Positions 3,649-58,232 of a stretch of 64,000 bases of DNA are shown here, in pieces (within the stretch, counting starts at the first letter, position 1; every line of letters starts with the position of its first letter). The DNA is from Escherichia phage sutha. The position numbers were made by a program, and so were the translations under genes. Location of the stretch: sequence record PV245934.1. One strand, 5' to 3'. A model generated the notes under the pieces. That model saw nothing but the letters and a program-made list of their open reading frames with translations. It was not told the origin of the DNA and made no database searches.

Positions 3649-4458
3649 ATGCTTAAAGAACAACTGATTGCTGAAGCGCAAAAAATTGATGCTTCCGTTG
3701 CTCTTGATAGTATTTTCGAATCAGTTAATATTTCTCCGGAAGCAAAAGAAACTTTCGGCACTGTATTCGAAGCTACCGTCAAGCAGCACGCCGTTAAATT
3801 AGCTGAATCTCATATCGCTAAAATTGCTGAAAAAGCAGAAGAAGAAGTAGAAAAAAATAAAGAAGAAGCCGAAGAAAAAGCTGAGAAGAAAATCGCTGAG
3901 CAAGCTTCTAAATTCATCGACCATCTTGCGAAAGAATGGCTCGCTGAAAATAAATTAGCAGTTGATAAAGGCATCAAAGCCGAACTGTTTGAATCCATGC
4001 TTGGTGGATTAAAAGAGCTCTTTGTTGAACACAACGTTGTTGTTCCAGAAGAATCAGTTGATGTTGTAGCTGAAATGGAAGAAGAGCTGCAAGAACATAA
4101 AGAAGAATCAGCTCGTCTGTTCGAAGAACTCAATAAGCGTGACGCATATATCAATTATGTGCAGCGTGAAGTGGCATTGAGCGAAAGTACTAAAGATCTG
4201 ACTGAGTCTCAAAAAGAAAAAGTCTCTGCTCTGGTCGAAGGTATGGATTATTCAGATGAATTCTCAAATAAATTGAGTGCCATCGTAGAAATGGTGAAGA
4301 AGTCTAATAAAGATGAAAGCACTATTACTGAGGGTATAAATACTCCTGATACTGAAGCAGTCGGACTGAATTTCGTCACTGAAGCTGTAGAAGATAAAGC
4401 TGCACCTGGTGCAGAAGATATTGTAAGTGTATATGCGAAAGTCGCATCTCGTTTCTAA
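3649..4458 (+). CDS. 22: major prohead scaffolding core protein gp22
   Basis: 269 aa, E/K-rich coiled-coil-like sequence; T4 gp22 size and position. Confidence 0.9.
   Translation: MLKEQLIAEAQKIDASVALDSIFESVNISPEAKETFGTVFEATVKQHAVKLAESHIAKIAEKAEEEVEKNKEEAEEKAEKKIAEQASKFIDHLAKEWLAENKLAVDKGIKAELFESMLGGLKELFVEHNVVVPEESVDVVAEMEEELQEHKEESARLFEELNKRDAYINYVQREVALSESTKDLTESQKEKVSALVEGMDYSDEFSNKLSAIVEMVKKSNKDESTITEGINTPDTEAVGLNFVTEAVEDKAAPGAEDIVSVYAKVASRF
4335..4342 (+). promoter_or_regulatory. late promoter TATAAATA inside 3' end of gene 22 (P23)
   Basis: Exact TATAAATA ~135 bp upstream of gene 23 ATG, as known for the T4 gene 23 late promoter. Confidence 0.6.
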
Positions 4459-24189: not shown

Positions 24190-24376
24190 AATAATCTAGT
24201 GGTAAGAGAGTACGATATATTTCAAACTTCGGACCTTTTTCATAGGCATCAAATGTTTCTGTGAATTTATTATAAGCATATGCATCTATAAATTCAATCA
24301 TAATTTGTGATACAGAAGTAGAAACATCTCCACCTTCTTTTTGAGCAACGACAATTGTTTCTAAGTAAGCTTTCAT
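24188..24376 (-). CDS. hypothetical small protein
   Basis: 62 aa, start overlaps gene 30 stop (ATGA). Confidence 0.6.
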   Translation of the reverse strand: MKAYLETIVVAQKEGGDVSTSVSQIMIEFIDAYAYNKFTETFDAYEKGPKFEIYRTLLPLDY

Positions 24377-25836
24377 AGACCAGTTACCTCATGAAAATCA
24401 CCAAATACATCCTCGAATGTATTAGCTTTAGTTTTATCTTCACGTAAACGAATCGCAATCGGAAGAAATAATTTAACGTAATCAGTGCGGCCATCAGATT
24501 TTAGCCAACCGTTGCATTCGCACTCTAGAATTTTTCCAATATAATAATTTTGGTTTTCCATAATGCGAGTACGGTCAAGTTCATGTGATTTTACACCGGC
24601 TTTATCTTTTAAGCCTGAACCAGCATTTACTTTAATTTTTCCACACTCTGATTCAAGAATAAATCCACCTGCTTTAGTAGGGTCTTTACGGTGAGGATAA
24701 ATTCCTACAATTTTTAAATCAACATCAATTACTTCTTTAAATTTATAGAGATTTTTTGAACGAGCATTTTCCCACAATCCATCGGTATTTTTGAGAATAA
24801 TACCTTCAAGACCTTGGTCAATATACTTTTTATAAATTACCTTAGCTTCATCTAGGTTATTTACTACCTGGTTTTCAATTAAAATTACTTTATCATATCC
24901 TGATGTCATTTGTTCTAGTTTAGAAAAACGTACATCATATTTTAAACGAAACGCCGGAAGACCGTATATTTCTACCAACGGGACATAATCCCAGACCTGA
25001 AACTTCATACATTGAGCTTCTTTTTCGGAAATGGTTCCTTTTAAGGATTTATTGGCGATTCCATTAGAAGCAGTACGAGATTCCGCTACTTCGGCGAATT
25101 CTTTAGCTTTACTAATTTCAGGATAAGCATCAAAAAGAAAATCTAGGCCTTCTGGTTCCTTTTTAATTTGCTCATGGTATACCAATTCGCCATCAATTAA
25201 CACACCTTCTGGATGAATCTGGCGGGCTTCAGCAGTCATTTTGATTAATTCTTCCTTAAGAAGATCTAATCCTAGATATTCATTACCAGCTCGTGATAAA
25301 AGACGAACATCATCTAATTCATCACCTCGGACTTCAGCAAAACACCGAGCTCCATCTGCTTTTAACTGTGCAAAGGCTGGAAACTTAATATTCTTACTAA
25401 TGCCTTTTTCATCATAAGAACTTGCCAGCATTTGAGGTTGTTCAGGAATTAAACCTGGCCAAACTTTATTTGCAATAGATACTGAAGCACCGCATTCAAG
25501 GTCTCGCATCATCACTCGACGCAAAACTTCAACATCATCCTTTTTACCATCGGTGATATATCCAGTCAATTCCTCAATTGCAGCATTTCCGGTCAATTTC
25601 CGAGTAGCTAACGTGAATTCAATGAAGTCAAGCATATCGGTAATGGTCAGCATTCCAAAACTCTGGGTAGCAATACCAGGTTTAGGCCATTTCTTGATAT
25701 AATACTGTAACCCACGAGAATAAGTCAGACGATATACCCGTTTAAGCAATTCATTATCTTTATTCTTTTCAAGAATTGCTTGCTTCTGCTTAGTTGATCC
25801 AATAGATGCTATTTCATTCAGAATTTTAAGAATCAT
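24373..25836 (-). CDS. 30: ATP-dependent DNA ligase gp30
   Basis: 487 aa; MILKILNEIASIGSTKQKQAILEKNKDNELLKRVYRLTYSRGLQYYIKKWPKPG... nearly identical to T4 DNA ligase by recall; ligase KxDG motif (FAQLKADGARCF). Confidence 0.98.
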   Translation of the reverse strand: MILKILNEIASIGSTKQKQAILEKNKDNELLKRVYRLTYSRGLQYYIKKWPKPGIATQSFGMLTITDMLDFIEFTLATRKLTGNAAIEELTGYITDGKKDDVEVLRRVMMRDLECGASVSIANKVWPGLIPEQPQMLASSYDEKGISKNIKFPAFAQLKADGARCFAEVRGDELDDVRLLSRAGNEYLGLDLLKEELIKMTAEARQIHPEGVLIDGELVYHEQIKKEPEGLDFLFDAYPEISKAKEFAEVAESRTASNGIANKSLKGTISEKEAQCMKFQVWDYVPLVEIYGLPAFRLKYDVRFSKLEQMTSGYDKVILIENQVVNNLDEAKVIYKKYIDQGLEGIILKNTDGLWENARSKNLYKFKEVIDVDLKIVGIYPHRKDPTKAGGFILESECGKIKVNAGSGLKDKAGVKSHELDRTRIMENQNYYIGKILECECNGWLKSDGRTDYVKLFLPIAIRLREDKTKANTFEDVFGDFHEVTGL

Positions 25837-26102
25837 TGCTCATCCTTCAAAGTTTGGTTTACAGCTCTATTATAAATCAATTCATCATTAAGCTCAGGCA
25901 AAGACTTATGATATGTAGTTCTAACTTTATTTCCTTGCATCCAGTGCTTGACGTAAATGAAACCTTGCTCTACACATTTTTTAAAAATTCGTTCGTCTTT
26001 TTGAGCTCGGAATTCTGGATTGCATCTAAAAAATTGATTTACGTGACCGTAATCACGTGTAGTATTACCTTCATTTTCATAAATAGTGTGAACGACAAAC
26101 AT
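25833..26102 (-). CDS. hypothetical protein (30.1 position)
   Basis: 89 aa, start overlaps the next ORF's stop and stop overlaps gene 30 start. Confidence 0.65.
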   Translation of the reverse strand: MFVVHTIYENEGNTTRDYGHVNQFFRCNPEFRAQKDERIFKKCVEQGFIYVKHWMQGNKVRTTYHKSLPELNDELIYNRAVNQTLKDEQ

Positions 26103-26965
26103 TAGAATGCTCCTTGGAAAATATTATCACCACTAGTAAATCTATTAAAATACCCTGCATCACCAGGCTTAGTATAACTCCACGTATGGAATGGATTCAT
26201 ATGATACGGGTGTGTATAATATGGATTATATGGATGTGTATAATATGGATTATACGGATTAAATCCAGGAGTTCTCCAGGTAGTGTTCCAACGAAAAGAA
26301 TCGTTTTTAACCATCTTCTCAATTACATCTTTTATAGCTTTTTCACTATCAAAACTTTTTTTATTTTCCTTCGGCGAAAAAAGCTTATTTTCTACATCAT
26401 TCCATGTATAAACTCGCTGAGCGGTTTTTGGAATATTGTCACGCTCTCCTCGCGCCATCCAATAAACAGGAACATTTAATATTTCACTCGCATGGTCGCA
26501 GTGGTGAGCGAGATCGTCAATATAACAAATTACGTTATATTTCTCTTTTGCCTTTTTGAATAACTCTTCTTTTGAAGAATCATGACCACACATCATTACT
26601 TCTGAGAAGGCACCAGGAAAAAGAGCATTTAAATTAAATTGACGATTCAACAGAGCGTCAATAGAATCACCCAATGCTGTAACAGCTACAAAATTATAAT
26701 CTTCTTTTAATTTGTTAATTACACACAGGGCATCTTTATACGGAGACAAGTAACGAATAAAATCTGAACGATTGTATTTTTCAATTAACTTGACGCCAAG
26801 TTCTTCATCACAATTAAAGAGTTTACCCGGAGAAATAAATTTCTCATCTTGGATCATTTTTAAAATATGTTCTAACGGAAGATTATATTTCTGAGCAAAA
26901 TAAGGAAGGCCTGATTGCCAGCTTAAACATACTCCATCAATATCAGTCAAAATAGTAGGCTTCAT
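26102..26965 (-). CDS. HAD-superfamily-like hydrolase with C-terminal PYNPYYTH tandem repeat (30.2 position)
   Basis: 287 aa; N-term MKPTILTDIDGVCL has HAD motif I DxDGV; C-term NPYNPYYTHPYNPYYTHPYHMNPFHTW encoded by a tandem 24-bp repeat at 26211-26257. Confidence 0.7.
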   Translation of the reverse strand: MKPTILTDIDGVCLSWQSGLPYFAQKYNLPLEHILKMIQDEKFISPGKLFNCDEELGVKLIEKYNRSDFIRYLSPYKDALCVINKLKEDYNFVAVTALGDSIDALLNRQFNLNALFPGAFSEVMMCGHDSSKEELFKKAKEKYNVICYIDDLAHHCDHASEILNVPVYWMARGERDNIPKTAQRVYTWNDVENKLFSPKENKKSFDSEKAIKDVIEKMVKNDSFRWNTTWRTPGFNPYNPYYTHPYNPYYTHPYHMNPFHTWSYTKPGDAGYFNRFTSGDNIFQGAF

Positions 26966-27426
26966 AGAGAGTCTCTTAATAGATTTAACATATCAATAAA
27001 TTCAGCTTCGGTTAGTATTGTATCATCTTTTGTTAGACCACTAGCCATGCTGTGCTTCAAAACTTTTCCTTTCGAGGCTTGTAATGCATCGCGAAAGCCC
27101 TTGTTTTGGAACGCTGCTTCAAAATATGCATTTGTGTATAATTCTTTCCACGCCGGAGAGTATCTTGAAAACGGAACTCCAAGCCAGAAGAGGGTCCCAC
27201 GGTCCTGAGCTCTAGCATAAGACCTTCCAGCTTGTTGGGCGGCAAGCCCGGATAACCCAAATATACGACGTTGCTGTTCAACATTTTTCACCTTACATCC
27301 TTGGAGGAATCCTTCGAGACCTCCAAATTGGATACCATCCATAACAAAAGGCCATTGGGCGAAATTACTTAATGCACATGATGGCCATCTAAAATTGCTT
27401 CTTATCTCTAACTCAGACATTTTCAA
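26962..27426 (-). CDS. NADAR / YbiA-like (DUF1768) protein (30.3 position)
   Basis: 154 aa; LSNFAQWPFVMDGIQFGGLEGFLQGCKV aligns with E. coli YbiA FSNFAAWPIKVDGKTWPTSEHYFQAQKF as recalled. Confidence 0.65.
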   Translation of the reverse strand: MKMSELEIRSNFRWPSCALSNFAQWPFVMDGIQFGGLEGFLQGCKVKNVEQQRRIFGLSGLAAQQAGRSYARAQDRGTLFWLGVPFSRYSPAWKELYTNAYFEAAFQNKGFRDALQASKGKVLKHSMASGLTKDDTILTEAEFIDMLNLLRDSL

Positions 27427-28141: not shown

Positions 28142-28507
28142 TTAAATATCAAATTCGTTAAGAACTACATCAAAGATTGCTTCAAGATGCTCAGGTTTAG
28201 CTCTGTTACTCAGAATATGACGAATCCAAGTTTTAACCAGAAGCTTGCGATTAACGCCATTCCAGCAAGGATGAGTCCCTAAATCGCGTTGACGAAAATC
28301 ATCATCTAATGCGATTTTAAAAGAAGAACCTTCTTTCGTGATTGAAACCGTAATGCCATTTTCAAATCGCATATAAACGTAGTTAGGAGTCATATACTGT
28401 TCAATTTCGCATACTGATCCATTTTGATGTTTCCAAAGGCAGATAGTATCAATAGAACCTGCAATACCGTTAGAAACATATTTACGTTCAAAGTTGATGT
28501 AATTCAT
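28142..28507 (-). CDS. hypothetical early protein
   Basis: 121 aa ORF. Confidence 0.6.
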   Translation of the reverse strand: MNYINFERKYVSNGIAGSIDTICLWKHQNGSVCEIEQYMTPNYVYMRFENGITVSITKEGSSFKIALDDDFRQRDLGTHPCWNGVNRKLLVKTWIRHILSNRAKPEHLEAIFDVVLNEFDI

Positions 28508-32934: not shown

Positions 32935-34349
<1,415 letters not shown>

Positions 34350-58000: not shown

Positions 58001-58232
58001 TGACAGAAGAGACAATAAGTTCCCTAACACTAACACAACTGGTAACCATACACACACATGGTCTGGTACTACAAGCGGTGCTGGTGACCATTCCCACTCT
58101 GTAGGTATTGGTGCTCATACCCACACGGTAGCGATTGGTTCGCATGGTCATACTATCACTGTAAATAGTACAGGTAATACAGAAAACACGGTTAAAAACA
58201 TTGCTTTTAACTATATCGTTCGTTTAGCATAA
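55032..58232 (+). CDS. 37: long tail fibre distal subunit gp37 (receptor-binding)
   Basis: 1066 aa; C-terminal His-x-His repeats ([41 protein letters not shown]) and end [11 protein letters not shown] as in T4-type gp37. Confidence 0.93.

Follow-up and report, generated by a model that had tools for sequence, protein, structure and literature searches.

On the minus strand of the 64-kb window (the whole stretch of DNA analysed) an open reading frame carries two nearly identical 24-bp units towards its 3' end. This raises the question which protein is encoded there, and whether the repeat is a fixed or a variable part of the gene. A sequence-only reading had proposed a HAD-like protein with a slippage-prone or recent duplication.

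Identity of the gene and its neighbours

According to the ORF list the reading frame codes for a protein of 287 aa with the N-terminus MKPTILTDIDGVCL. The profile PHROG 420 ("unknown function") matched it in full length (E 5.9e-89 over aa 1-276). The coding sequences labelled 30.2 in RB3, PP01 and ime09, as well as the T4 and T2 versions of the gene, are 92-99% identical to it on the DNA level. The window itself belongs to a Tequatrovirus: over 20 kb it shares ~97% identity with Shigella phage Shfl2 and the Escherichia phages G50 and REP4. The gene order lig / 30.1 / 30.2 / 30.3 was found in the window as well as in T4, RB3, PP01, T2 and REP4 (Table 1). By its full-length profile match and this position the protein belongs to the T4 gp30.2 family (PHROG 420), and on sequence grounds the open reading frame is the ortholog of T4 gene 30.2.

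Table 1 Features of the gene 30.2 region in the window
Feature	Position	Strand	Basis
Ortholog of T4 gene 30.2, coding sequence (stop TAA 26102-26104)	26102..26965	-	ORF list, PHROG 420, DNA identity
HAD-fold phosphatase-like domain, aa 1-195, with helical C1-type cap (~aa 14-75) between motifs I and II	26381..26965	-	
HAD motif I, D8-I-D10-G-V12 (nucleophile Asp, general acid/base Asp)	26930..26944	-	Conservation and cdN alignment
Predicted helix aa 207-220, joining domain and tail	26306..26347	-	Both AlphaFold runs, moderate to low confidence
Tail aa 225-287, predicted to be disordered, with many Tyr, Pro, Thr, Asn and Phe residues	26105..26293	-	Low pLDDT, composition
24-bp tandem repeat, 2.3 copies	26204..26259	-	Tandem Repeats Finder (TRF); allelic series
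Shine-Dalgarno sequence AAGGAG (26110-26115) and ATG (26100-26102) of 30.1	26100..26115	-	Read from sequence ...TTCCAAGGAGCATTCTAATG
ATGA overlap of 30.3 stop and 30.2 start	26962..26965	-	Sequence and ORF list
DNA ligase	24373-25836	-	DNA_ligase_A_M match
30.1	25833-26102	-	DUF3045, E 5.6e-63
30.3	26962-27426	-	Pfam Phage_30_3, E 1.8e-69
30.7	28142-28507	-	Phage_T4_Gp30_7

T4 gp30.2 is an uncharacterised protein of ~32 kDa. It resembles the protein of the window in its position between 30.3 and 30.1 by the DNA ligase gene, in the HAD domain and in the plan of the tail, where WNTTWRTPGFNPYN is followed by an aromatic and proline-containing segment and by GDNIFQGAF. In contrast, T4 gp30.2 has 278 aa without the 24-bp duplication (NPYNPYHPYQTHPFQTW) and carries the other C-terminal allele type, GGIEYLYNRPT. 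A literature search for gp30.2, gene 30.2 and deoxyribonucleotidases in T4-like phages found no paper on gp30.2 in the collection covered. The HAD protein described in PMC13326640 was rejected as a candidate, as it is the product of a different RB69 gene. In sequence records, some depositors have already annotated the protein as HAD-like hydrolase or 5'-3' deoxyribonucleotidase.

The genes from 30.7 to 30.1 and lig are densely packed and mostly overlapping. At the junction TAATG the TAA stop of 30.2 overlaps the ATG of 30.1, and the ribosome-binding site of 30.1 lies within the last codons of 30.2, TTC CAA GGA GCA TTC TAA. The end ...DNIFQGAF is highly conserved at the DNA level in Tequatrovirus, probably because of these embedded signals of 30.1.

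Two further observations concern the neighbouring genes. The 30.3 ortholog is listed from a TTG start with 154 aa, deposited genomes annotate versions of 459 bp or 381 bp, and PP01 has an additional internal ORF, 30.3'; thus, the start site of 30.3 is inconsistent across records. Furthermore, a protein of 302 aa from a Logan contig (P0015) combines a 30.2-type HAD domain and a short tail with an in-frame fusion to DUF3045 (30.1-like; PF11243). This may be a Rosetta-stone hint of joint action of 30.2 and 30.1, or it may reflect a lost stop codon or a sequencing error.

The HAD domain

For residues 1-190 AlphaFold2, run with an alignment of 99 sequences, gave a model with block-mean pLDDT values of 93-98. 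The model shows the Rossmann-like alpha/beta core of the phosphatase branch of the HAD superfamily. All four motifs are conserved among the 99 homologs. D8 and D10 of the DxDGV sequence (motif I) and K132 (motif III) are invariant; T96 (motif II), at the end of strand 91-96, and D150-D151 (motif IV), at the end of strand 145-150, are each conserved to at least 90%. Thus, the Ser/Thr of motif II, the Lys/Arg of motif III and the acidic pair of motif IV are all present, with K132 and D150/D151 assigned by position and conservation and not by superposition.

Foldseek assigned the model to HAD enzymes with a probability of 1.00. Matches were the cytosolic and mitochondrial 5'(3')-deoxyribonucleotidases of mouse and human (cdN and mdN) and the bacterial deoxyribonucleotidase-like protein 3bwv, with TM values of 0.63-0.70 on the target; 3bwv gave the highest identities (19-21%). 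Dehalogenases, sugar phosphatases and phosphoglycolate phosphatases were also found, so that the matches spread across the capped HAD enzymes. A search of BFVD returned members of the family first, followed by phage proteins named 5' nucleotidase. On the sequence level cdN was the only PDB match of the family profile (E 0.076). In the profile alignment to mouse cdN (2jao), D8 corresponds to N12, D10 to D14 and T96 to a cdN threonine. The entry 2jao is the D12N variant of mouse cdN, with Asp at position 12 in the wild type. The helical insertion of the cap is present in the AlphaFold model. The aromatic residue compared with cdN is the invariant W16, which aligns opposite a cdN phenylalanine just after motif I.

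Weak matches to PF00702 were obtained for 13 of the 99 family members and to NT5C (PF06941) for six relatives out of 99 (best E 1.2e-4). Scans of the window's protein with Pfam, NCBIfam and PADLOC gave no match even at E<=1, and it thus stays below the gathering threshold of PF06941. In general, the protein shares with cdN, mdN (NT5C/NT5M, PF06941) and 3bwv the HAD core, the helical cap, DxDGV, the motif II threonine and the aromatic pair W16/Phe. It differs from them in an identity of only 13-21%, in the lacking Pfam NT5C match, in an extra helix and in a predicted disordered tail of ~65 residues. The HAD superfamily also includes the phosphatase domain of T4 Pnk/PseT (PHROG 415), to which a weak profile match was detected (E 0.0013, aa 74-176). 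The Pnk phosphatase lacks a cap and works on the ends of nucleic acids; in contrast, the protein of the window has a helical cap and is without a kinase domain.

A HAD fold with an intact active site is therefore well supported by the predicted structure and the motif conservation, and the proposal of a HAD-like protein held up. From the complete catalytic set we infer phosphatase activity for gp30.2: the first ~195 residues would most likely form a capped HAD phosphohydrolase that depends on Mg and dephosphorylates a small phosphoester. By analogy to the 5'(3')-deoxyribonucleotidases, a (deoxy)nucleoside monophosphate would be the best guess for the substrate. This nucleotidase specificity is the leading guess, yet an unproven one and only a lead, because the structural matches span capped HAD enzymes of differing specificity. 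There is a smaller, though appreciable, chance that the domain acts on another phosphoester, be it a sugar phosphate, phosphoglycolate or, as for Pnk, the 3'-phosphate of a nucleic acid, or that it is a HAD enzyme other than a phosphatase. Several points stand against this. The second Asp of motif I marks phosphotransferases as opposed to dehalogenases, and D10 is invariant, for which reason a dehalogenase was rejected. The helical cap favours a small-molecule substrate over the capless Pnk type, and with this cap present and the kinase domain absent a Pnk-type phosphatase was rejected as well. Finally, both the sole PDB match at the sequence level and the highest structural identities are deoxyribonucleotidase-like.

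The C-terminal tail

The length of the family proteins ranges from 176 to 347 aa. The HAD domain is found in all members; the long tail is absent in about one third of them and extremely variable in the others. Residues 222-287 of the window's protein (66 residues) consist of 14% Tyr, 12% Pro, 12% Thr, 11% Asn and 11% Phe. Block-mean pLDDT values of the tail were 35-59 in the first AlphaFold run and 31-45 in a second one, for which the alignment was restricted to tail-bearing homologs; this alignment was shallow and degraded the cap. No fold or docking of the tail was seen in the second run (pLDDT <50).

In tail-bearing members three short islands follow each other: W-x-x-P-G, P-aromatic-aromatic-x-H-P and, near the terminus, G(T)GIEYLxxQPT or one of its variants. 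The dN/dS value, calculated from 19 Tequatrovirus alleles, was lowest in the domain (0.03) and higher in the linker (0.20) and the tail (0.26). Hence, the tail is translated and constrained, although much more loosely than the domain. When the tail was compared by BLAST with every ORF of the window, in search of a C-terminal motif in common, nothing matched. The tail is predicted to be disordered; low pLDDT is no proof of this, as the tail contains conserved islands and could fold on a partner. Our best guess is that it serves as a flexible spacer with short docking motifs.

The repeat in the window

On the plus strand the unit 26211-26234 (TGTGTATAATATGGATTATATGGA) adjoins the unit 26235-26258 (TGTGTATAATATGGATTATACGGA), and the two differ in one base. 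Read in codons, they are CCG TAT AAT CCA TAT TAT ACA CAT (26257-26234) and CCA TAT AAT CCA TAT TAT ACA CAC (26233-26210), coding for P237-H244 and P245-H252, that is PYNPYYTH twice, and CCG TAT follows as a partial third unit. The description of two adjacent 24-bp units with one mismatch was thus correct in coordinates, sequence and translation. Only the heading under which it stood, calling the repeat perfect, was slightly too strong, given the mismatch that its own text mentioned.

Tandem Repeats Finder reported the array with a period of 24, 90% matches and a score of 98, the highest in the 64-kb window, and detected a nested period of 9 bp. No other tandem in the window has a period of 18-60 with one mismatch or none, and 300 dinucleotide-preserving shuffles yielded not a single tandem of this kind. 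The adjacent units are therefore near-identical beyond chance, as expected for a coding VNTR. Weaker tandems with 76-85% matches were listed at 2456-2495 (period 12), 3839-3879 (21), 34217-34268 (27), 34300-34339 (21) and 58082-58139 (27).

Copy number in related phages

Synthetic queries with one, two and three units were searched against 50,697 phage records. One copy was found in D5505 (gene of 840 bp), three copies in BYEP01 (888 bp), and two copies plus an extra 9-bp unit AAT CCA TAT in RPN226 (873 bp). The two-copy form (864 bp) was matched without gaps over 228 bp in at least 57 records, some of which are RefSeq/GenBank duplicates; among them are REP2/3/4, SH-1/2, HY01, PST, Shfl2, G50, G9062 and Manna. 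Dozens of phages of Escherichia, Shigella, Yersinia and Salmonella carry this allele, and in a dozen GenBank genomes the 228-bp repeat region is 100% identical. Other in-frame indels of the 9-bp type affect the same segment in T4 (837 bp), RB3 and PP01 (840 bp), T2 (843 bp), G8 (849 bp), OMNI12 (855 bp), EL (861 bp) and Ozark (834 bp). All ten gene lengths observed are multiples of three. Whole-unit differences in frame between related genomes, the second property of a coding VNTR, are most directly seen in D5505 (one copy) and the metagenomic contig L039 (two copies), which differ by one substitution and the 24-bp indel.

In the tree of the repeat flanks the alleles with one and three copies are nested within the two-copy clade. 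This nesting, together with the pair D5505/L039, indicates that gain and loss of units are recent and recurrent. The alleles with one, two, three and two-plus-9-bp copies and this near-identical pair bear out the expectation of a slippage-prone repeat of variable copy number. A recent origin of the duplication itself does not agree with the data: the two-copy allele is spread over dozens of phages, and the first unit has diverged to PYHPYYTH (N to H) in one sublineage (Pu-Krd-SF7, FL12, Manna and AV121). Judged by these comparisons, the two-copy state is old and widespread, not new.

The tree of the first 690 nt and the tree of the tail flanks are incongruent (L011-L026), showing inside gene 30.2 the mosaicism of alleles that is usual in these phages. 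The 5' part of Ozark groups with the window, yet its repeat segment is T4-like. The core of the repeat, TATAATCCATATTATACACA, was found at 13 loci in IMG/VR and JGI metagenomes; 12 of these lie in unrelated sequence and match by chance, and L039 is the only real 30.2 gene. A scan of IMG/VR for related loci gave 10 loci, none of them with the duplication.

Some records show peculiarities of their own. A second indel in the tail, at ~26120-26140 on the minus strand, distinguishes TSGDN from TSGSGDN by a 6-bp unit AGT GGT (L012, L013, L014) and varies independently of the 24-bp repeat. In FL12 (L022, PP400786.1, locus 83-946) a change of CAA to TAA four codons before the normal stop leaves a protein ending in ...DNIF, and the deposited 30.2 CDS is annotated 12 bp shorter. 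In Escherichia phage Ge15 (PP359696.1) the 228-bp query matched in four places, compared with one to three in the other matches listed, which may point to a duplicated or mis-assembled region.

Discussion

Taking gene and repeat together, we consider it likely that the locus is the 30.2 ortholog, that it encodes a capped HAD phosphohydrolase with a predicted disordered tail, and that the repeat in this tail gains and loses units in frame. Short direct repeats can misalign, and slipped-strand mispairing or unequal recombination then changes the number of whole units. We infer such a mechanism for gene 30.2. The middle of the tail is encoded by direct repeats of this kind, the 24-bp unit and nested 9-bp units for NPY, HPY and PFH; misaligned during replication or recombination, they would add or drop whole units, always in frame, and give rise to isolates with one, two or three copies of PYNPYYTH. 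The frame would be kept because the conserved C-terminal segment as well as the ribosome-binding site and the start codon of 30.1 lie downstream. The genomes are mosaic, as the incongruent trees indicate, so that recombination between alleles could also have made some of the variants. Comparable behaviour is known from coding minisatellites, with which the locus shares head-to-tail units, gain and loss of whole units, polymorphism between near-identical genomes and the preserved frame. It differs from them in a very short repeat of one to three units and in one dominant class.

The other readings of the repeat have to be weighed against this mechanism. That the tandem duplication is an artefact of assembly or sequencing has next to no probability: the at least 57 records with the same ungapped two-copy sequence come from numerous laboratories and countries, the metagenomic contig L039 has this sequence too, and an array of 48 bp is shorter than any read. 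The repeat is thus real, and the possible objection of an assembly artefact is answered. A role on the DNA or RNA level, in which the TATAAT of each unit would serve 30.1 and lig as a promoter inside the gene or as a regulatory element, seems very unlikely. A promoter-like sequence TGGAGA-18-TATAAT with 10 of 12 matches does exist on the minus strand (26278-26249) and ends in the first unit. Promoter-like sites in the region are, however, not above chance (nine found against 6.4 +/- 2.5 in shuffles), and TATAAT is simply the codon pair for Tyr-Asn. Moreover, alleles of the T4 type contain a single such hexamer, and synonymous differences between the units are tolerated. No terminator-like site was found in a scan of the region.

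It is improbable, though not negligibly so, that the number of repeats is functional in itself, with PYNPYYTH as a short binding motif whose copy number or spacer length tunes docking in the manner of a contingency locus. It is the second island, P-aromatic-aromatic-x-H-P, on which the duplicated unit falls, and distant homologs also have this island, e.g. as KPWYEHPG in P0039-P0044 (P0041 of this group is from a Klebsiella phage). There the island stands between W-x-x-P-G and a near-terminal GIEYLxxQPT. Purifying selection on the tail and the strictly in-frame indels fit this explanation as well. In contrast, neither AlphaFold run revealed a partner, a predicted structure or a contact, and nothing tail-like occurs elsewhere in the window. 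Only one to three copies are seen, the two-copy class is dominant, and about one third of the family manages without a long tail. For the preserved frame, the C-terminus downstream and the ribosome-binding site of 30.1 embedded there are an equally good explanation. The suggestion of the sequence-only reading that the aromatic repeat may mediate binding stays a guess, and the tail is unstructured in both AlphaFold models. More specifically, PYNPYYTH might be a short linear docking motif, and slippage-driven changes in copy number might give the tail another valency or a different reach; we regard this as a long shot. If it were true, related phages could retune where and how strongly the phosphatase is recruited, e.g. 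to a complex of nucleotide metabolism or replication or to a host target.

The significance of these results beyond annotation is small, and the series of copy numbers, though new, is a minor instance of a familiar phenomenon. Gene 30.2 gains a firmer label, that of a capped, nucleotidase-like HAD phosphohydrolase with a predicted disordered tail. The in-frame polymorphism of the repeat could serve as a typing marker for closely related T4-type phages. It is also a natural example of short direct repeats generating indels in highly recombinogenic genomes. Furthermore, the natural series of one, two and three copies and the tail-less homologs make the substrate and the tail contacts of gp30.2 slightly more testable.
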